A stretch of DNA of 48,253 bases from Minisyncoccota bacterium (GTDB lineage Bacteria; Patescibacteriota; Minisyncoccia; Phycocordibacterales; UBA9973), in contig DATDWM010000021.1 of NCBI GenBank assembly GCA_036517375.1, positions 1 through 48,253 of the forward strand. The letters run 5' to 3'. The notes under the pieces were generated by a model. It was not told the origin of the DNA and did no database searches. It saw only the letters and a program-made list of their open reading frames with translations. Positions 16,590-48,253 of this stretch are shown here, piece after piece; the first letter of the stretch is position 1, and each line of letters opens with the position of its first letter. Made by a program: the position numbers and the translations under genes.

Positions 16590-17951
16590 ATGGCCAAAGA
16601 TTTTTTCCAAGACATGATAAAAATGAAGTCGGAACTCCGTAAAGAAATGGAGCAAAAAGAGGCTTCCAAAATGAACGCCCGCGAAGTAAGGGAATTTAAA
16701 GATGCTGGTCGGGAGGTCAGAGAGAATCGAAGTACAAGGCAGGAGGTATTAGAAGAACAGGTTCTACAGCCGGCTACTGCGCATACTAAAGTTTCTAGGA
16801 AAAAAGAAAGTAAAAGAAGGAAACCACGATACTCGCTTTGGCTGGTGGCGGCTGTTTCGGTGGTGTTTCTATTTTTTGCTGTTTCATATTTACTAGCTCG
16901 AGCTTCCATCACCATAAATCCTAAAACAAAAGACGTAGCCTTTAATCAAAATTTAGTCGCCGTGAAGGGAGCTAGCGCGGAGGGCAGCCTATCCTTCGAC
17001 GTGATAGAACTCTCTGGCGAAGAAAATAAAGTTGTTCAAGGTGGGGCGGTTGCGGATACCTTGATTGCCGCCCGAGGTACAGTATTGATTTACAATAGTT
17101 ACAGTACTGCTACTCAAAGGTTAGATATTAATACTAGGCTCGAAGGCTCTAATGGTAAAATGTATAAGACCGAGAAGGCGGTAGTGGTTCCAGGCATGAA
17201 GGGTACTACGCCAGGATCTGTTGAAGTAGGAATCTATGCTGCGGAAGCTGGAGAAGCCTCGAACAGCGAGCCTCTGGATTTTCAAGTCTTTGGTTTCAAA
17301 GGAACTTCCAAGTATTCCAAATTCTACGCTCGTTCCAAGGGAGTTATAACCGGTGGTATCAAGGGTAAGGTAAGTATTATCCCAGAAGCCAAGATGGCTA
17401 TCATAGTTAATGACATGAGGGCCATTCTGGAAGAGAAGCTCCTTGCCAAAGCGACTGGGCTCATTCCTCCTGGCTCGGTGCTCTTTAAGGATTCAATTTT
17501 TCTAAACATTGAAAGTCAGAATTTCGACTTCGCAAGTGGTAGTGAACAAGTTCCAGTAACTGTGAAAGGCACTTTCTATGGCTTCATCCTTGATGAAAAG
17601 GAACTTACAAAAAAAATTACGGAAAGTTCCATGCCCGACTACGATGGTAGCGAGGTATATATTTCAAATCTCGAGAGTCTAAGCTTTACCTTTTTAGAAA
17701 AAACAGGACCATCGATCAATGATGTCCAAAATATTAGTTTTAATTTATCTGGCAATCCGAAGGTAGTATGGCGGTTCGATGTGGATAAACTAATAGGGGA
17801 ATTGGCCGGGGGGAGTAAGAGTAATTTCAATCAAATATTATCTAAATATCCAAACGTAGTCTCTGCAGACGTAGTGCTCACGCCTCTCTGGAGGAGGTCA
17901 TTTCCCGGGGATGAAAAGAACATTCAAGTATTGGTAAATTATCCGGAGTAA
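16590..17951 (+). CDS. Single-pass membrane protein, unknown function
   Basis: Charged N-terminus, one TM helix (YSLWLVAAVSVVFLFFAVSYLLA), and a ~340-aa beta-rich ectodomain. Tightly follows the actin-like gene. Confidence 0.55.
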   Translation: MAKDFFQDMIKMKSELRKEMEQKEASKMNAREVREFKDAGREVRENRSTRQEVLEEQVLQPATAHTKVSRKKESKRRKPRYSLWLVAAVSVVFLFFAVSYLLARASITINPKTKDVAFNQNLVAVKGASAEGSLSFDVIELSGEENKVVQGGAVADTLIAARGTVLIYNSYSTATQRLDINTRLEGSNGKMYKTEKAVVVPGMKGTTPGSVEVGIYAAEAGEASNSEPLDFQVFGFKGTSKYSKFYARSKGVITGGIKGKVSIIPEAKMAIIVNDMRAILEEKLLAKATGLIPPGSVLFKDSIFLNIESQNFDFASGSEQVPVTVKGTFYGFILDEKELTKKITESSMPDYDGSEVYISNLESLSFTFLEKTGPSINDVQNISFNLSGNPKVVWRFDVDKLIGELAGGSKSNFNQILSKYPNVVSADVVLTPLWRRSFPGDEKNIQVLVNYPE

Positions 17952-42473: not shown

Positions 42474-43880
42474 TTAAAATTCATCCAACTCTCCACTGAC
42501 TTTGGCCGGAGAGAAGTCAGAAAGACTGCTTTTCTCAAGACTTAGGAATGTAGTAGTTTTTTCATCAAAGAACAGATCAACCTTGCCGACAGGGCCATTT
42601 CGATGTTTTTCAATTAAAATTTCTGCGATGTTTGTCTTTTCGGATTCATCCTTACCTTTATCATCTCGGTGAATAAACATAACAACGTCCGCATCCTGTT
42701 CGATGGATCCAGAGTCGCGGAGGTCGGAGAGGCGAGGCTTGCCGCCGCGAGATTCCACGGCACGGTTCAACTGAGAGAGCGCCAAGACTGGTACGTCTAA
42801 TTCCTTCGCCAGACTTTTTAGCGACCTAGAAATTTCCGTAACTTGGTTGACCATGGAATCGTAATTTTTAGAAGTGGTCATGAGCTGTAAGTAGTCTACG
42901 ATAATAAAATCTAATCCCTTTTCTGCTTTAATACGGCGGGAAAGAGCTTTCATCCGGACGATAGAATTGCCGGGCTGGTCGTCAATAAATATTTTTGCTT
43001 TAGCGAGTTTATCTAAAGAATCACGTATTTGGGAGAATTCACGATCAGAAGAAATGCGGCCAGTGCGCAAGTTCCAAGCGTTCACGCGAGATTCAGCCGA
43101 GAGCATACGGTCTACCAGCTGTTGAGAGGACATTTCCAATGAAAAGATAAGGATGGACTTTTCATGGGTGACTGCAGCCATGCGCGCCATGTCGAGCGCA
43201 AGAGTTGTCTTACCCATAGATGGACGAGCTGCCAGTATTATCAAATCAGAATTTTGGAGACCGGAGAGCATAGTATCTAGATCTTTGAATCCGGTCGGAA
43301 GTCCGCGAAGCATTCCTTTGTTCTCGTGCAACTTCTCTAGTCTCTCATACGCTTCCGGTAACGCTTCTTTAAGGCTCGTATATTTTTGATTCTTTGGAGA
43401 AGACACTACGGCAAAAACTTTCTTCTCCGCCATATCTAGAATGTCATCCATATGGTCATCGCCTTCTTCGAAAGCGAGCTCGGAGACGAAGTCCGCCGCT
43501 TCTATTAAACTTCTAAGAACATATTTCTTTTGGACTATTTCTGCATAGTGCTTGATGTTGGTGCTCGATGGGACAGTATTCACAATTTCTGCCAAGTACT
43601 GGTTGCCGCCGATTCGTTCAATTTGTTTCTTTTCGGCGAGCTTGGTGGAGAGGGATAGCATATCTATCGGTTCATTCTTACTTGATAGTTCGAGCATGGT
43701 CTGGAAAATTATTTTATTTTTTTCAACATAAAAAGAGTCGGGTGAGATCATGTCTTCTACTTCGTGCATCGCATTCTTGCGGAGCATAATGGAGCCCAGA
43801 ACGGCTTGCTCGGACGGTATGCTCTGTGGTGGGATGCGTAAATTTGTTTTATTTTTATTCTGGCCTTGCATTAAAGTCAT
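42474..43880 (-). CDS. dnaB: Replicative DNA helicase DnaB
   Basis: PPQSIPSEQAVLGSIML N-terminus, Walker A ARPSMGKTT, and IVDYLQLM. TAGCAT lies 6 nt before the ATG on the minus strand. Confidence 0.93.
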   Translation of the reverse strand: MTLMQGQNKNKTNLRIPPQSIPSEQAVLGSIMLRKNAMHEVEDMISPDSFYVEKNKIIFQTMLELSSKNEPIDMLSLSTKLAEKKQIERIGGNQYLAEIVNTVPSSTNIKHYAEIVQKKYVLRSLIEAADFVSELAFEEGDDHMDDILDMAEKKVFAVVSSPKNQKYTSLKEALPEAYERLEKLHENKGMLRGLPTGFKDLDTMLSGLQNSDLIILAARPSMGKTTLALDMARMAAVTHEKSILIFSLEMSSQQLVDRMLSAESRVNAWNLRTGRISSDREFSQIRDSLDKLAKAKIFIDDQPGNSIVRMKALSRRIKAEKGLDFIIVDYLQLMTTSKNYDSMVNQVTEISRSLKSLAKELDVPVLALSQLNRAVESRGGKPRLSDLRDSGSIEQDADVVMFIHRDDKGKDESEKTNIAEILIEKHRNGPVGKVDLFFDEKTTTFLSLEKSSLSDFSPAKVSGELDEF

Positions 43881-43948
43881 TCTATCATGCTAGCGGAATA
43901 GGGGAAGCATTCAAGGGGATATATGTGTTATTAAAATGTGGACAAATA

Positions 43949-43957
43949 TGATAATAT
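43949..43957 (+). promoter_or_regulatory. Extended -10 TGaTAATAT, 6 nt before the trpS ATG
   Basis: ATTTGT follows, then ATG 43964. Confidence 0.5.
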
Positions 43958-43963
43958 ATTTGT

Positions 43964-44977
43964 ATGGAAAATAAAGAAAAGATAGTGCTCACGGGCGACC
44001 GGCCGACAGGAAGACTTCATCTGGGGCATTATGTAGGCTCAATAAAAAATAGAGTAAAATTGCAGGATGAAGCCAGTAAGTCTTTTTACATGATTGCAGA
44101 TGTCCAAGCTCTTACTGATAATGCCGATAATCCAGAAAAAGTTCGAAGTAATGTCATAGAAGTAATACTTGATAATTTAGCTTGCGGAGTTGATCCAAAG
44201 AAAACAATTTTCTTTATTCAATCACAAGTACCAGAGATCGCGGAGCTCACAGTATTTTTTATGAATCTTGTGACTTTCCAACAACTCTCTCACAATCCAA
44301 CTATTAAGACAGAAATAAAAGAAAAAGGATTTGAAAAAAGCACTCCATTTGGATTTTTAGCTTATCCTGTATCTCAAGCAGCGGACATCCTGTTTTGTAA
44401 AGCCAACACTGTGCCAGTCGGAATAGATCAGATGCCGGTCCTAGAACAAGCAAATGAAATTGTTAAAAAATTTAATGCAACATACAACGTAGATTTATTT
44501 TCTAAAATTAACGGAGTTATTAGTAAGAACTCACGACTTGTCGGCACTGATGGAAACGCTAAAATGTCAAAGTCGTTGGGTAATTGTATTTACCTGTCGG
44601 ATTCAGATGAAGAAATTGAAAAGAAAATCATGCAAGCATATACAGACCCAGGCCATATTCACGTAGAAGATAAGGGTAAGGTTGAGGGGAATGTTGTATT
44701 TACATATCTTGATGTGTTCGATGAAGATAAAGAGGGCGTAGCGGAACTAAAAACTCAATATCAAAAAGGTGGGCTCGGCGATGTGGTATTAAAGAAGAGA
44801 TTAATTAAAGTTTTAATAGATATAATTACACCAATACGCACAAGAAGGGAAGATCTTGCTAAAAACCCTAGTCAAGTTATGAAAATTTTAGAACAGGGAA
44901 CCAAAGAAGCACGCAAGGAAGCAGAAAAAACAATGATAGAAGTACGAACGGCGCTCAAGATTGATTACTTTAATTAA
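43964..44977 (+). CDS. trpS: Tryptophan--tRNA ligase
   Basis: TGDRPTGRLHLGHYVG (HIGH-type) and KMSKS motifs. Size 337 aa. Confidence 0.92.
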   Translation: MENKEKIVLTGDRPTGRLHLGHYVGSIKNRVKLQDEASKSFYMIADVQALTDNADNPEKVRSNVIEVILDNLACGVDPKKTIFFIQSQVPEIAELTVFFMNLVTFQQLSHNPTIKTEIKEKGFEKSTPFGFLAYPVSQAADILFCKANTVPVGIDQMPVLEQANEIVKKFNATYNVDLFSKINGVISKNSRLVGTDGNAKMSKSLGNCIYLSDSDEEIEKKIMQAYTDPGHIHVEDKGKVEGNVVFTYLDVFDEDKEGVAELKTQYQKGGLGDVVLKKRLIKVLIDIITPIRTRREDLAKNPSQVMKILEQGTKEARKEAEKTMIEVRTALKIDYFN

Positions 44978-44994
44978 AATGACATACTGACAGC

Positions 44995-45015
44995 GTACTA
45001 GTATGGTGATATAAA
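44995..45015 (+). promoter_or_regulatory. GTACTAGTAT half-palindrome abutting extended -10 TGaTATAAA of the trpR-like gene
   Basis: TACTAGTA palindrome at 44996-45003. TGATATAAA at 45007-45015 lies 4 nt before ATG 45020. Confidence 0.45.
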
Positions 45016-45019
45016 AATC

Positions 45020-45304
45020 ATGAAGAATAATTCGGAACAATATAAAAGAGAATTGATTGACATCTTGTCAAAAGTTGCAAATGACAAGGACCTCTTGGCG
45101 GATTTTGTTAAAGAAATATTAACACCGCGCGAATTTGAAAATATTGGTGTACGCTGGCAGATAGTGAAGCGGCTGGCAAAAGGGGAGCATCATGCCTCGA
45201 TAGCAGAGGCTCTACATTTAGGAGTGGCCACAGTAACTCGCGGTAGTCGAGAAATGAGGAAAGAGAAAGGAGGATTCCGTCGGGCATTAAAGCTAGTAAG
45301 ATAA
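45020..45304 (+). CDS. TrpR-family (YerC/YecD-like) DNA-binding protein
   Basis: TPREFENIGVRWQIVKRLAKGEHHASIAEALHLGVATVTRGSRE matches the Trp-repressor fold family. Confidence 0.75.
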   Translation: MKNNSEQYKRELIDILSKVANDKDLLADFVKEILTPREFENIGVRWQIVKRLAKGEHHASIAEALHLGVATVTRGSREMRKEKGGFRRALKLVR

Positions 45305-45376
45305 GGCTCAATCAACTGACTAGAAATAAGTTATCCACACCTCGGCAATCTCCCCTCTTGCTTTTATTTTTTATAT

Positions 45377-45402
45377 ATACTAGCATACTAGTATGATAGT
45401 AT
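45377..45402. promoter_or_regulatory. Phased CTAG operator array (ATACTAG-CATACTAGTATG-ATAGTAT)
   Basis: CTAG, CTAG and ATAG centres begin at 45380, 45388 and 45396, an 8-bp phase. The core CATACTAGTATG is a perfect 12-bp palindrome (45384-45395). Confidence 0.55.
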
Positions 45403-45488
45403 TAAAAAATTTACAAACAAAGTCACTTGGGTACCGAGCAGGGTATTGGTGGGGCGCAAGCATTCGAGCTTTTGCGCCGTTTTGTTGA
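45393..45488 (+). CDS. Candidate trp leader peptide (31 aa, tandem Trp codons)
   Basis: Encodes MIVLKNLQTKSLGYRAGYWWGASIRAFAPFC*. Preceded by TTGCTT(45358)-N17-TAGCAT(45381)-N6-ATG. TGG TGG at 45447-45452 abuts the terminator stem. Confidence 0.45.
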   Translation: MIVLKNLQTKSLGYRAGYWWGASIRAFAPFC

Positions 45489-45490
45489 TT
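45453..45490 (+). terminator. Attenuator-type intrinsic terminator in the trpR/trpB intergenic region
   Basis: GGCGCAA(GC)-ATTCGA-(GC)TTTTGCGCC stem (45453-45478), then GTTTTGTTGATTT. Confidence 0.6.
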
Positions 45491-45500
45491 TCTTTTATCC

Positions 45501-45519
45501 ACTAGTCACTAGCGACTAG
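45501..45519. repeat. Three ACTAG pentamers at 7-nt period (ACTAGTC ACTAGCG ACTAG)
   Basis: ACTAG at 45501, 45508 and 45515, between the two terminators of the trp intergenic region. Confidence 0.6.
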
Positions 45520-45546
45520 AACCTAACTCATAAGGAATCCACTGAC

Positions 45547-45575
45547 CAGCGCATGAGCGCTGTGTTTTGTTCTTT
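45547..45575 (+). terminator. Second terminator-like hairpin in the trp intergenic region
   Basis: CAGCGC-ATGA-GCGCTG stem, then TGTTTTGTTCTTT. The tail resembles that of the first terminator. Confidence 0.5.
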
Positions 45576-45594
45576 GGAAAGGGGGGTTGTAAAG

Positions 45595-45789
45595 ATGATT
45601 AATAATGAACACTTCGTTGTAACAAGCCAGGAAGCCAGAAAGGTGGTGGAAGCGATTATGGAACATGCGGAAGCCACAGAGAGGTCAGTGGGCAAGGTTT
45701 TAGAAGAAGTAGTGAGTGGCCTCTTGGTTGTGGTTCACTGGAAAGAGGGTCAGCTTACGCTCCTTTACAGCAGTCCAAACGGGCTGTAA
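45595..45789 (+). CDS. Hypothetical 64-aa protein (SD-led) between attenuator and trpB
   Basis: AAAGGGGGGT lies 7 nt before ATG 45595; the ORF-track start at 45553 lies in the hairpin loop. No family recognised. Confidence 0.45.
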
Positions 45790-45866
45790 TTACTAGAAGA
45801 GCGGTGAGTAATAGAAAGGAATACAATCCAATCTATTACTCACAGCTTTATTTAAAAATAACTTTT

Positions 45867-47033
45867 ATGAAATCATATTTTGGAAAATTTGGTGGACAGT
45901 TTGTTCCTGAGACTCTCATGCCTTCACTTTTGGAATTAGAAGAGTCGTATAAAAAGTTTAAAAAAGATAAAAATATACAAGCGGAATTAAAAAACTTGCA
46001 ACAGAGTTTTATTGGTCGTCCGACTCCTCTGTACTTTGCTAAGAATTTATCTAAAATTACTAGTCAAAAAATTTACCTTAAACGGGAAGACCTCGCACAT
46101 ACCGGTGCTCATAAAATAAACAATGCCCTTGGGCAAGCCCTGCTCGCAAAATTTATGGGTAAAAATCGCATTATCGCCGAAACTGGCGCAGGTCAACACG
46201 GCGTTGCTACGGCGGCAGTATGTGCCAAGCTTGGCTTGGCCTGTACTATATATATGGGTGAAGTGGATGTAAAAAGACAACAACCAAATGTATTACGAAT
46301 GCGATTGTTGGGAGCAAAAGTTGTTTCAGTTTCTACTGGTAGTAAGACACTAAAAGATGCAATAAATGAGGCAATACGAGAATGGATTAGTAGTGCTGAA
46401 ACCACCCATTATATGCTGGGTTCGGTTTTGGGCCCACATCCATATCCGACGATAGTTAGAGATTTTCAGAAAGTAATTGGTAAGGAATCTAGAAATCAAA
46501 TTTTAAAAATTGAAGGTAAATTACCAGATTATTTAATTGCATGCGTTGGCGGTGGAAGTAATTCTATTGGCTTGTTCCATAAATTCTTAAATGATTCAAA
46601 AGTTAAAATGATTGGAGTGGAAGCCGGGGGTATGGGAATTAAAAGTGGCAAGCACGCTGCAAGATTTTCTGGAGGACGGGAAGGAATTTTACACGGTACG
46701 AAATCCTTTGTTTTGCAAGATAAAGATGGCCAAATTACAGAAACCCATAGCATTTCAGCTGGACTTGATTATCCTAGCATTGGACCCGAGCACAGCTACC
46801 TATATAAGCTAGGTCGAATTCAATATGTTTCAATTACCGACCAAGAAGCTTTGGATGCATTTATCTTGTTGTCAAAAATGGAGGGCGTAATTCCTGCGTT
46901 AGAATCAGCTCATGCCGTAGCTTTTACTTTAAAGTTGGCAAAAAAATTGCCTAAAAATAAATTAATTATAGTTAACTTGTCAGGTCGTGGCGATAAAGAT
47001 TTATTAGAAATGACAAAAGGATTAAATATATGA
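45867..47033 (+). CDS. trpB: Tryptophan synthase beta chain
   Basis: [14 protein letters not shown], and the PLP lysine motif HTGAHKINN. Start trimmed to [10 protein letters not shown]. Confidence 0.93.
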
Positions 47034-47809
47034 ATAAAATTGATTTAGTTTTTGAGAAGCTAAGAGGGGAGAAACGTTGCGGACTGATGCCATTTTTAGT
47101 TGCAGGATTTCCAAATTTTAATAGTTCATTAAGCTTGCTAAAGTTGCTTGCACAGCACTCAGATTTTTTAGAAATAGGTTTTCCTTACTCTGATCCTTTG
47201 GCTGATGGTCCAATAATTCAAAAGGCTGATCAAGTGGCTTTAAGAGCTGGATCAACTTCAGATTACGTCTTTAAACTTATTAGTAAACTACGGGAAACTA
47301 CTAAAATTCCTATCACAGTTTTAGTATATGCTAATTTAATATATCAGCGAGGTGTAAATAAATTTTATTCTGATGCTAAAGCTGCCGGCATAGACGGGGT
47401 TTTAATACCAGATATTCCATTTGAGGAGATGGATATATTTGTAAAAGCGGCAAAGAAAAATAATGTAGCCAATATTTATTTACTTTCATCTAGTACTAGT
47501 GAGCAGCGCCTCGTTAATATTTTGAAAGTTGCAGAAGGGTATCTTTATTTGACTTCTATTGTTGGTATTACTGGTGTTAAAAAAGATATCCCACAAGATA
47601 CATTAGATTACATAAAAAAACTGAAAAAGAAAACTAAACTACCGGTGGCTGTGGGATTTGGCATATCAAATTCTACTCAAGTAAAAAAATTAAAAAAAGC
47701 TGGCGCAAATGGGGTAATTATGGGAAGTAGTTTAATTCAACTTATCCAAAGATCCCCTAAAGTAAATAGAAGTGCTATCGTAGGATTTTTAGAAAGATTT
47801 AAGATCTAA
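47030..47809 (+). CDS. trpA: Tryptophan synthase alpha chain
   Basis: ATGA overlap with trpB. Contains [17 protein letters not shown] and the GFGIS motif. Confidence 0.92.
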
Positions 47810-47822
47810 AATATCTGAGTAC

Positions 47823-47851
47823 TTGCGTTTTTATCCATAAATCAATTCAAT
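47823..47851 (+). promoter_or_regulatory. Promoter candidate TTGCGT-N17-TTCAAT upstream of island 4 ORF
   Basis: TTGCGT at 47823-47828 and TTCAAT at 47846-47851. Confidence 0.35.
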
Positions 47852-47905
47852 AGACTCTTTTATGACTAAGCGCTACTGTAGCGTCTAGTTCTTTCGGAGG
47901 TAGAT

Positions 47906-48229
47906 ATGCCCAAGGACACGTTCGAAGTATGGCTCTCGAAGCGGAGTTCGAGTCGCACACGCATGACAGTTCCGGCCCATGTGAAGAAACTCGCGTGCGG
48001 CTGCAGTCGCGAAGAACTCCGTTCGCCTAGGTTCAACATTGGGCTCAAGGAGGACGGATGGGTTCACGTCGGGTGGGATACGCATGACCCCCTCCACCTG
48101 CGGCCGGCCCCACCAATGGGTTCGGCGTGTGCGACGACAGTTCTCGCCCCCTCTGACGCGACAAAGGGGCCGGGACACCCCATTGATTCAAAGTCAGTGC
48201 GGGAGGATAGTGGCTGGGAGGGGTACTAG
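47906..48229 (+). CDS. Hypothetical 107-aa protein on GC-rich island 4
   Basis: GGAGG lies 5 nt before the ATG. The HVKKLACGC motif resembles HVRTACCGC of the island 3 protein. The island runs to the window edge. Confidence 0.5.
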   Translation: MPKDTFEVWLSKRSSSRTRMTVPAHVKKLACGCSREELRSPRFNIGLKEDGWVHVGWDTHDPLHLRPAPPMGSACATTVLAPSDATKGPGHPIDSKSVREDSGWEGY

Positions 48230-48253
48230 AAGTCTTCAGGCGGGCGGATCCGA

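Follow-up and report, generated by a model that had tools for sequence, protein, structure and literature searches.

Introduction

In Chlamydia trachomatis, trpR is followed by an intergenic region (IGR) of 348 bp and by trpBA; TrpR acts at the promoter upstream of trpR, and the promoter within the IGR is controlled by YtgR (PMC7755916). The annotated TrpL of this species, a 59-aa peptide lacking tandem tryptophan codons, was judged non-functional, and TrpL-type attenuation is lacking (PMC7755916). For mycobacteria, a preprint describes leaderless polycysteine upstream open reading frames (uORFs) as attenuators that control downstream operon genes (bioRxiv 10.1101/834739). Here we analyse a trpS-trpR-trpBA locus and, above all, the gap between its trpR and trpB genes. 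It lies in a 48,253-nucleotide stretch of DNA (contig DATDWM010000021.1 of assembly GCA_036517375.1, contig C21 in our numbering and 'the window' below) from a Nomurabacteria-like bacterium of the Candidate Phyla Radiation (CPR, or Patescibacteria), a groundwater organism with a tiny genome, whose closest named relative is Ca. Nomurabacteria GW2011_GWB1_43_19.

CPR bacteria are thought to be host-dependent for nearly all building blocks, and to our knowledge few regulatory circuits are known among them. In the literature on TrpR or attenuation in these bacteria we found no description of regulation by such a switch, or of multiple trpB origins. The genes trpA and trpB were reported in 15% and 18%, respectively, of the metagenome-assembled genomes (MAGs) of larger-celled groundwater Patescibacteria (Chaudhari et al., PMC8672522).

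The locus is similar to that of C. trachomatis in that a reduced genome carries trpR, an IGR and trpBA without trpE/G/D/C/F, and Chlamydia makes tryptophan from external indole (PMC7755916). It differs in that its gap contains a candidate TrpR operator and a covariation-supported attenuator with two adjacent tryptophan codons (YtgR was not searched for), and in that the catalytic residues of TrpA are intact. A preliminary description of this DNA had compared the two loci and had taken a leader peptide and attenuator to be established in C. trachomatis; these turn out to be an unvalidated annotation without consecutive tryptophan codons, YtgR being used instead (PMC7755916). Its proposal of an indole-salvage layout in a reduced genome stands as far as trpBA is present alone and the rest of the pathway was not found. 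The likeness to Chlamydia is one of gene content and lifestyle, convergent and not due to shared descent, because trpR and the switch mostly occur without trpBA and TrpB here is of more than one origin; the regulation is E. coli-like. As the best explanation, we consider it likely that the organism is incapable of de novo tryptophan synthesis and uses trpBA for indole salvage, behind a two-layer tryptophan switch made of a TrpR operator and a leaderless attenuator with a Trp-Trp motif.

Results

Gene content of the locus and of the genome

The whole account is based on computational analysis of sequences. The assembly comprises 636,332 bp in 32 contigs and is 90.4% complete and 1.2% contaminated. 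On the + strand of the window, trpS (43964-44977) is followed by a TrpR-like gene (45020-45304), a gap of 562 bp (45305-45866), trpB (45867-47033) and trpA (47030-47809), the last two overlapping by ATGA. Family scores identify trpS as a tryptophanyl-tRNA synthetase gene (TIGR00233, 263 bits, cut-off 177), present as a single copy (the sole tblastn match in the genome), and trpB and trpA as encoding the 388-aa beta subunit (TIGR00263, 631 bits, cut-off 392) and the 259-aa alpha subunit (TIGR00262, 269 bits, cut-off 102) of tryptophan synthase. The ORF list and these scores bear out the gene order given in the preliminary description, a TrpR-family gene between trpS and a long gap followed by overlapping trpBA, and the window contains no further tryptophan-biosynthesis gene, as had been stated there.

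The synteny comparison across CPR relatives that it had suggested places this layout in a wider context: the arrangement dnaB(-)-trpS-trpR is found again on about 45 related metagenome contigs, and the complete order dnaB-trpS-trpR-gap-trpBA-aspS is also present in Ca. Nomurabacteria GW2011_GWB1_43_19. Because the same gene order recurs in this way, the layout is not an assembly accident. The sister genome G105, to which locus L006 belongs, is 100% complete and carries orthologous trpBA (handles beginning with L denote loci and those with G genomes; the window's own genome is G000).

A six-frame search of the whole assembly for PF00218 (trpC), PF00425 (trpE), PF00697 (trpF), PF00591 (trpD) and PF01264 (aroC) gave no match, whereas each of these five families was detected in 14 of 14 control genomes. 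The genome has only two matches to the glutamine amidotransferase (GATase) family PF00117, and these are CarA and PyrG. The whole-genome check for trpE/G/D/C/F proposed earlier thus finds these families missing from a genome that is 90% complete; in the complete sister genome G105, trpC, which encodes indole-3-glycerol phosphate (IGP) synthase, and trpE were not found, and IGP synthase and TrpE were likewise not found in two more trpB-bearing genomes of the genus. The genome also has no member of the tryptophanase family.

Both subunits of the enzyme appear fit for catalysis when aligned to the E. coli proteins and solved structures. TrpB keeps the lysine that binds pyridoxal phosphate (PLP), K87, together with H86, E109, the GGGSN phosphate loop (G232-N236), D305, E350 and S377; TrpA keeps the catalytic residues E49 and D60, plus Y175, T183, G211, G213, G234 and S235; and the alpha-beta contact pair TrpA D56 / TrpB K167 is conserved. 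The inactivating substitutions that could have undone the salvage proposal were therefore not seen in either protein, all key residues being intact. Between the window and L006, trpB is 81% identical, with a non-synonymous divergence (dN) of 0.13, and trpA has a dN of 0.26. Synonymous divergence (dS) is saturated in this comparison, so that dN alone is informative; saturated dS with low dN points to long-term purifying selection on both genes.

A candidate tryptophan repressor and its operators

The trpR gene (45020..45304, +) encodes a 94-aa protein of the Trp-repressor family (PF01371, 51.8 bits, gathering threshold 27), which is 33% identical to E. coli TrpR and obtains only 17.7 bits with the YerC/YecD model. 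T44, R54, A80, T81, T83, R84, G85 and S86 are conserved when the protein is aligned to TrpR of E. coli and to five homologues from CPR bacteria. In E. coli TrpR, T44, R54, R84 and G85 form the corepressor pocket, and A80, T81 and T83 belong to the DNA-reading helix.

Within the gap, a promoter (45358..45395, +), indicated by its conservation, with a -35 element TTGCTT (45358-63) and a -10 element TAGCAT (45381-86), is overlapped by a candidate TrpR operator. The latter, ACTAGCATACTAGT (45379-45392) or, over its full span 45379-45395, CATACTAGTATG, covers the -10 element, the predicted transcription start and the ATG of the leader ORF described below. Across about 40 related loci, this promoter-operator stretch hardly differs in any base, although the synonymous sites of these loci are saturated. 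The E. coli trp operator fits the identical ACTAG-N3-ACTAGT pattern (L134:9114-9127), with the same CTAG-N4-CTAG geometry and an 8-bp distance between the CTAG steps; in the window there is a single occurrence of the pattern, 0.49 being expected by chance.

Allowing at most one mismatch, the operator 12-mer is found at three sites in the genome: in the gap, before trpR and on contig C18. The first two flank trpR. The site before trpR is the half-palindrome CGTACTAGTATG (44994-45005), located 15 nt ahead of the trpR start, where it overlaps a promoter-like site read from the sequence (ATGACA-17-TATGGT, 44979..45007, +); this palindrome is kept in L006 and in other loci having a trpS-trpR spacer, and probably reflects autoregulation. 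The control region is thus comparable to the one belonging to E. coli's trp operon in having a TrpR-family repressor, a CTAG-N4-CTAG operator over the promoter and an operator also before trpR. From this arrangement, TrpR would be expected to repress both the leader promoter and trpR in a tryptophan-dependent manner. The third site, ATCAGCATACTAGTAGGCGAGTAT (G000:C18:17003-17014), is a half-palindrome only and may be due to chance; it is followed by an ORF (17025-17750) of 241 aa that resembles an M24-type peptidase.

The preliminary description had placed trpS, repression and attenuation in one regulon. The gap does carry a predicted repressor site and an attenuator. However, the operator is seen in front of trpR itself and not of trpS, and no operator-like 12-mer was found 5' of trpS in any of 18 loci (the window and 17 related ones), which gives no support to including trpS in the proposed regulon.

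A leaderless leader ORF

Directly at this operator begins a leader ORF of 31 codons (45393..45488, +), recognized by the conservation of its frame, with two adjacent tryptophan codons (TGG TGG, 45447-45452) and a TGA stop (45486-45488). Its ATG sits within the operator. We compared the leaders of 48 metagenome loci found with the TrpR protein, plus L006. In all 29 distinct loci whose leader contains TGGTGG, the operator ATG is in frame with TGGTGG and no stop codon intervenes, although the spacer between them takes eight lengths (36, 45, 54, 57, 60, 66, 72 and 81 nt), all multiples of 3. The stop is a conserved UGA in GUUGAUUUC, whose position is kept in about 23 of 30 leaders. An amino-acid racemase gene begins at the operator ATG itself in four loci, one of which (L089) offers no alternative start for this gene. 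We infer from these patterns that the leader ORF is translated.

The start of this ORF follows a rule of the genome. Across the genome's 518 long ORFs, the frequency of TANNNT has a sharp maximum exactly 6 nt ahead of the start codon (95 ORFs, against a background of about 20), and only 37 are preceded by a motif resembling a Shine-Dalgarno (SD) sequence; leaderless mRNAs appear to be the usual way in which operons begin here. The arrangement TANNNT-6 nt-ATG is shared by trpS (43952-43966), dnaB (43878-43895, minus strand) and the leader ORF (45381-45395). As TAGCAT-6 nt-ATG of the leader ORF is the genome's typical start, a leaderless leader ORF is fully in keeping with the start sites of this organism. 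The mycobacterial uORF attenuators are alike in that a leaderless mRNA starts at the AUG of a short ORF in which codons for the sensed amino acid are frequent. They differ in concerning cysteine and Actinobacteria, whereas the present ORF concerns tryptophan, has a repressor operator placed across its start and is coupled to explicit terminator and antiterminator helices.

Three mutually exclusive helices

From an alignment of 24 complete leaders, we could identify three helices that are mutually exclusive and all show covariation. Hairpin 1 (45452..45479, +) pairs segments 1 and 2 (GGCGCAA, 45453-59, with TTGCGCC, 45472-78), starts directly after the tryptophan codons and is followed by a U-rich tail; 86% of its alignment cells are paired, and five of its 11 pairs have changed on both sides. 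A role in pausing or as a first terminator is proposed for it. Hairpin 2 (45547..45577, +), detected by a terminator scan and by covariation, pairs segments 3 and 4 (CAGCGC-ATGA-GCGCTG) and has the tail TGTTTTGTTCTTTGG. Its pairs 5-7 covary (e.g. AT 10 / GC 12 and CG 11 / TA 10 among the 24 loci), and its U-rich tail is conserved in these loci, where CAGCGC / GCGCTG is followed by UUUUGUUCUUUG. This hairpin is proposed to be a tryptophan-responsive intrinsic terminator.

The alternative helix, a candidate antiterminator of about 23 bp supported by covariation (45468..45558, +), pairs segments 2 and 3. Its 5' strand consists of segment 2 and GTTGATTTCTT (to 45494), and its 3' strand of AAGGAATCCA (45532-41) and the 5' arm of hairpin 2. 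It is paired in 92.6% of the cells, compared with 40-53% when the partner is slid, and shows changes on both sides in eight pairs (19 cells). Column 44 of the alignment covaries both with its segment 1 partner (GC/GU/AU) and with its segment 3 partner (CG/UA/UG), and this dual covariation is the signature of a switch. With 23 pairs formed by segment 2 plus its tail on one side and AAGGAAUCCA plus the 5' arm of hairpin 2 on the other, the alternative helix also accounts for the strong conservation of GTTGATTTCTT and AAGGAATCCAYYAA between the hairpins. When 19 nt were masked, as by a ribosome stalled at Trp-Trp, the antiterminator was the minimum-free-energy fold in 15 of the 24 loci.

The gap is thus best described as a putative ribosome-mediated attenuator of the trpL type in its logic, and not as a sequence member of a described family. 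As in E. coli trpL, a short ORF has two adjacent tryptophan codons by segment 1, the helices 1:2, 2:3 and 3:4 exclude each other, and a terminator ends in a U-tract. In contrast to E. coli, the ORF is leaderless, its AUG lies in the operator and it has 25-40 codons instead of 14; it is read through hairpin 1, which has a U-rich tail, and stops just after segment 2; and the antiterminator is extended to 23 bp, with no match to the Rfam Trp leader. The cargo differs as well, being trpBA only here and often non-trp in relatives, with trpR adjoining trpS and the regulated unit. These data agree with the earlier suggestion of both repression and attenuation at this locus, the operator, the Trp-Trp leader ORF and the covarying helices all being present in the gap.

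Rfam searches (gathering threshold over the whole window; E<=10 over 44900-45950) revealed no T-box and no Trp leader, and only chance matches in the gap; the TRAP family PF02081 was not found in the genome. The locus is comparable to the TRAP and T-box systems of Bacillus subtilis in that the status of tryptophan or tRNA-Trp would be coupled to termination in a leader, but it has no PF02081 in the genome and no T-box or other Rfam match in the gap. The (U/G)AG-like ACTAG repeats here, which differ from a TRAP site in being limited to a few loci and lying inside the antiterminator loop, consist of three ACTAG motifs with a 7-nt period (45501..45519, +) in the apical loop. CTAG/CTAA repeats of this sort are seen in just five loci, the window, L006, L092, L108 and L119; the switch does not require them, and they could be extra TrpR sites or a relic. 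We considered AAGGAATCCA as the SD sequence of a second small ORF and rejected this candidate: the start codon is not conserved, and the following bases covary with the 3' arm of hairpin 2.

Distribution and cargo of the switch

Of 121 sampled genomes of the genus, a large one within Nomurabacteria, about 45 have a TrpR orthologue. A covariance model of the attenuator, whose E-values are rough, matches in 41 of the 121, nearly always 100-450 nt downstream of trpR; its single match in the window's own genome is at 45444-45580. Canonical trpB is found in only nine. The unpublished genome G076 is included in these three tallies and was left out of the tree below. Accordingly distributed over about one-third of the genus, trpR and the switch represent the older and conserved component, and trpBA is an acquired cargo among several.

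Another type of trpBA lies behind the switch in L106, L112 and G106, and trpB alone in L130 and G104. In L115 (4495-8164), a TrpD-TrpC fusion, TrpF and TrpB, corresponding to the route from anthranilate to tryptophan, are encoded behind the switch, and in L004 (G012:C3, 289-2769) the cargo is TrpB2 (TIGR01415, 684 bits) followed by prs, encoding phosphoribosyl pyrophosphate (PRPP) synthetase. A PRPP synthetase gene is also inserted between trpS and trpR in L098 (1394-2392). Small orphan ORFs occupy the place behind the switch in other loci, and aspS comes after the cargo in each of these related loci, L006 included, where it is the gene 3' of trpA. Stand-alone TrpB and TrpB2, known as indole scavengers, are thus found in the same switch-controlled slot in relatives within the genus, which fits a selected function in indole salvage; the window differs in having a canonical TrpB1-TrpA pair with conserved alpha-beta contacts.

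The commonest cargo is a PLP-independent amino-acid racemase (PF01177; TIGR00035, 157 bits), observed in at least 10 loci. In L088, L089, L102 and L126 it stands at the leaderless ATG of the leader, without an attenuator; it also occurs in L091, L101, L105, L111, L119 and L127. No copy was found in the window's genome. A tryptophan-controlled racemase hints at salvage of D-amino acids, perhaps D-tryptophan.

A mixture-model IQ-TREE phylogeny distributes the TrpB1 genes of this slot among three clusters, and its supported branches force at least two origins. Forcing the TrpBs of the genus together costs 91 log-likelihood units (p-AU 0.0014 in the approximately unbiased, AU, test); the group constrained was all TrpBs of the genus or locus and was named after the first tree had been seen. 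The TrpB1 genes at this slot thus appear to have had at least two origins. A count of three is not claimed: under this model, used to recheck a FastTree placement, a common origin of clusters A (the window and L006) and B (L106/L112/L143/L115) is conceivable (support 57). With moderate support, the TrpBs of the window and L006 group with those of a Micrarchaeia (DPANN) MAG and a Sericytochromatia MAG.

Three further observations concern trpB. The Ca. Micrarchaeia MAG JAWCPB010000002.1 (L024, 5725-7952) has trpB and trpA as a pair and no further trp gene over the 6 kb inspected; this may represent a parallel salvage layout in a second ultra-small lineage. In L138, L139, L140 and L142 (genomes G068, G072, G091 and G055 of the genus), a stand-alone trpB of 399-401 aa is accompanied by neither trpA nor TrpR nor an attenuator within the 4 kb viewed; it is closely related to the trpB that is found behind the switch in L130/G104. 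Finally, in a genome of the same genus that lacks trpB, a 49-aa open frame (L005, G021:C4:1536-1613) includes a 26-residue match to the C-terminus of TrpB, which may be the remnant of a lost trpB.

Discussion

Our results suggest a switch with two sensors. In the first layer, responding to free tryptophan, TrpR with bound tryptophan would occupy the palindromic operator at the leader promoter and the site before trpR. The second layer would respond to charged tRNA-Trp, transcription starting at the A of the leaderless 31-codon ORF. When tryptophan is scarce, the ribosome would stall at the two tryptophan codons and cover segment 1, so that segment 2 and its conserved tail GUUGAUUUCUU could pair with AAGGAAUCCA and segment 3 into the antiterminator of about 23 bp; hairpin 2 would be blocked, and the polymerase would continue into a 64-aa ORF, trpB and trpA. 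When tryptophan is plentiful, the ribosome would reach the conserved UGA past segment 2 and mask the 5' strand of the antiterminator, and hairpin 2 (3:4) would terminate transcription. In an untranslated transcript, hairpin 1 (1:2) with its U-rich tail would fold and cause an early stop. The enzyme itself would most likely condense imported indole with imported serine to yield tryptophan. Gene content, the conservation of residues and reading frames, the covariation of the three helices and the leaderless promoter rule are observed in silico, whereas binding by TrpR, ribosome stalling, the efficiencies of termination and indole as the substrate are deduced from them.

Several observations weigh against this account. 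TrpR scores 45.9 bits with the equivalog model TIGR01321, under its cut-off of 67.25, and has Glu instead of Ser at position 88; R69 is not conserved. The passage of the leader ORF through a hairpin 1 that has its own U-rich tail, unlike E. coli trpL, makes the kinetics uncertain, and a small ORF and a strong hairpin, both described below, separate the attenuator from trpB. Most genomes with the switch have no trp genes behind it, and its primary role may not be the control of trpBA. The IGP-cleaving site of TrpA is fully intact, unlike what one would expect after long use of indole only, and use of IGP is conceivable, though the genome encodes no source of IGP. About 10% of the genome is unassembled. 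Moreover, no member of the serine hydroxymethyltransferase (SHMT) family was found in the genome, so that serine must also be imported; with the tryptophan pathway and tryptophanase families not found either, indole and serine would both come from outside.

The points on TrpA lead to the question of whether trpBA could be a recently transferred passenger of little physiological role, or serve other chemistry, such as serine deamination or beta-substitution by TrpB or the action of TrpA on host-derived IGP. The presence of trpB in just nine of 121 genomes, with several origins, and the intact catalytic site of TrpA would fit such a scenario, and chlamydial TrpBA is reported, in work cited by PMC7755916, to deaminate serine without indole. 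We nevertheless regard it as unlikely, since neither gene has lost its integrity or its conserved active site after the split from L006, over a time in which synonymous sites became saturated, and since they are placed behind a tryptophan-specific switch whose slot holds TrpB2, stand-alone TrpB or trpDC-F-B in relatives, all of them tryptophan-forming enzymes. It is very improbable that the pathway is complete, with the other trp genes hidden in the unassembled tenth of the genome. The assembly is indeed only 90.4% complete and in 32 contigs, and the related contig L115 has trpD-trpC, trpF and trpB behind the same switch. Yet five independent families that are present in 14 of 14 control genomes would all have been missed, sister genome G105, 100% complete and with orthologous trpBA, has no trpC and trpE, the switch directly flanks trpBA in both genomes (with aspS on the other side in L006), and even L115 lacks trpE/G on the stretch seen.

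As for the gap, one could imagine that only TrpR repression operates there, that the Trp-Trp ORF is fortuitous and that the hairpins following trpR are just tandem terminators or insulators of the ordinary kind. Both hairpins do resemble plain intrinsic terminators, nothing in Rfam matches, the Trp leader family included, and the leader ORF is unusually long and has no SD sequence. Leaderless starts are, however, the rule in this genome, and the preservation of the frame and of TGGTGG over eight spacer lengths, together with the kept position of the stop codon, is hard to reconcile with a fortuitous ORF, while the conservation between the hairpins is explained only by the 23-bp alternative helix with its eight covarying pairs and the three-way covariation at column 44. 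Repression alone is in our opinion quite improbable. Homology by descent with trpR-IGR-trpBA of Chlamydia, through a shared or transferred cassette, is barely credible. The two loci share the order trpR-gap-trpBA, and the prs gene near trpR in some relatives resembles the situation in trp clusters of other Chlamydia species. But trpR and the switch are ancestral in the genus, where they usually lack trpBA, TrpB entered at least twice (AU test p 0.0014), its nearest relatives are from a Micrarchaeia MAG and environmental bacteria and not from Chlamydia, in a comparison made without chlamydial sequences, and the regulatory logic differs.

If indole salvage behind a two-layer switch is indeed what this locus performs, a 0.64-Mb genome appears to spend sequence on a switch with two sensors, which would mean that tryptophan supply is a real and fluctuating limitation for these cells. 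Their exchanges with hosts or the community would then likely have indole as a currency. It would also extend the classic logic of attenuation far outside of Proteobacteria and Actinobacteria, to a leaderless variant that has its start codon inside a repressor operator, with a bearing on the evolution of attenuators and on translation-transcription coupling in organisms that hardly use SD sites. Moreover, a conserved switch in front of a changing cargo offers a handle for assigning functions to orphan CPR genes.

A bolder idea, which we consider possible but doubtful, is that the conserved unit is not a 'trp operon' but a portable slot for expression under tryptophan starvation, consisting of trpR, the operator, the leaderless Trp-Trp attenuator and any cargo. 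This would imply repeated capture of different cargo, namely three lineages of TrpB(A), TrpB2 with prs, trpDC-F-B and, most often, the racemase and fast-changing orphan small proteins. Some of these cargoes would then be undescribed ways for episymbionts to obtain or spare tryptophan, for instance by racemizing D-tryptophan released by the host, and an additional, so far undescribed layer of control, brought in with trpBA, would be formed by the 64-aa protein and the conserved hairpin ahead of trpB.

Other features of the locus

Between the attenuator and trpB, an ORF scan indicates a 64-aa ORF with a strong SD sequence (AGGGGGG; 45595..45789, +), a type of start that is atypical for this genome. 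The sole homologue found is ORF-B of L006 (49% identity); there was no match in Pfam or NCBIfam, and an ESM Atlas search gave nothing usable. A 78-aa version starting at ATG 45553 is less likely, this ATG falling in the loop of hairpin 2. L006 has a second small ORF besides the homologue. The 64-aa ORF is followed by a long hairpin with a U/A-rich tail (45794..45854, +; -26.8 kcal/mol, z -6.3), directly before the trpB start, a conserved ATG (45867) without SD sequence. In L006, the hairpin at this place has the same architecture and a different sequence (-31.9 kcal/mol, z -6.0). The ORF and the hairpin may have come together with trpBA.

Two putative DnaA boxes frame trpS and trpR. Just past trpR lies a perfect match to the DnaA-box consensus, TTATCCACA (45331-45339, +), and between dnaB and trpS there is a DnaA-box-like sequence, TGTGGACAA, inside TGTTATTAAAATGTGGA (43937-43945). 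Both are kept in most related loci and could indicate regulation by DnaA or an origin-related site.

The -10 element of the trpS promoter, as read from the sequence, is TAATAT, 6 nt ahead of the ATG of a leaderless start (43952..43963, +). The trpS gene of the window is only 33% identical to that at the equivalent position in most relatives. Two types of trpS, 33% identical, thus share the dnaB-trpS-trpR position within the clade (window 43964-44977 versus L006:3963-4943 and most of L086-L130), the window type being shared by L112, L098 and L130. An essential synthetase thus seems to have undergone xenologous replacement.

After trpA, a GC-rich stretch (47823-48253) extends up to the contig end. 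It contains an SD-led ORF of 107 aa (47906-48229), which has no family match and is weakly similar (39% over 57 aa) to part of a variable region in L097/L103.

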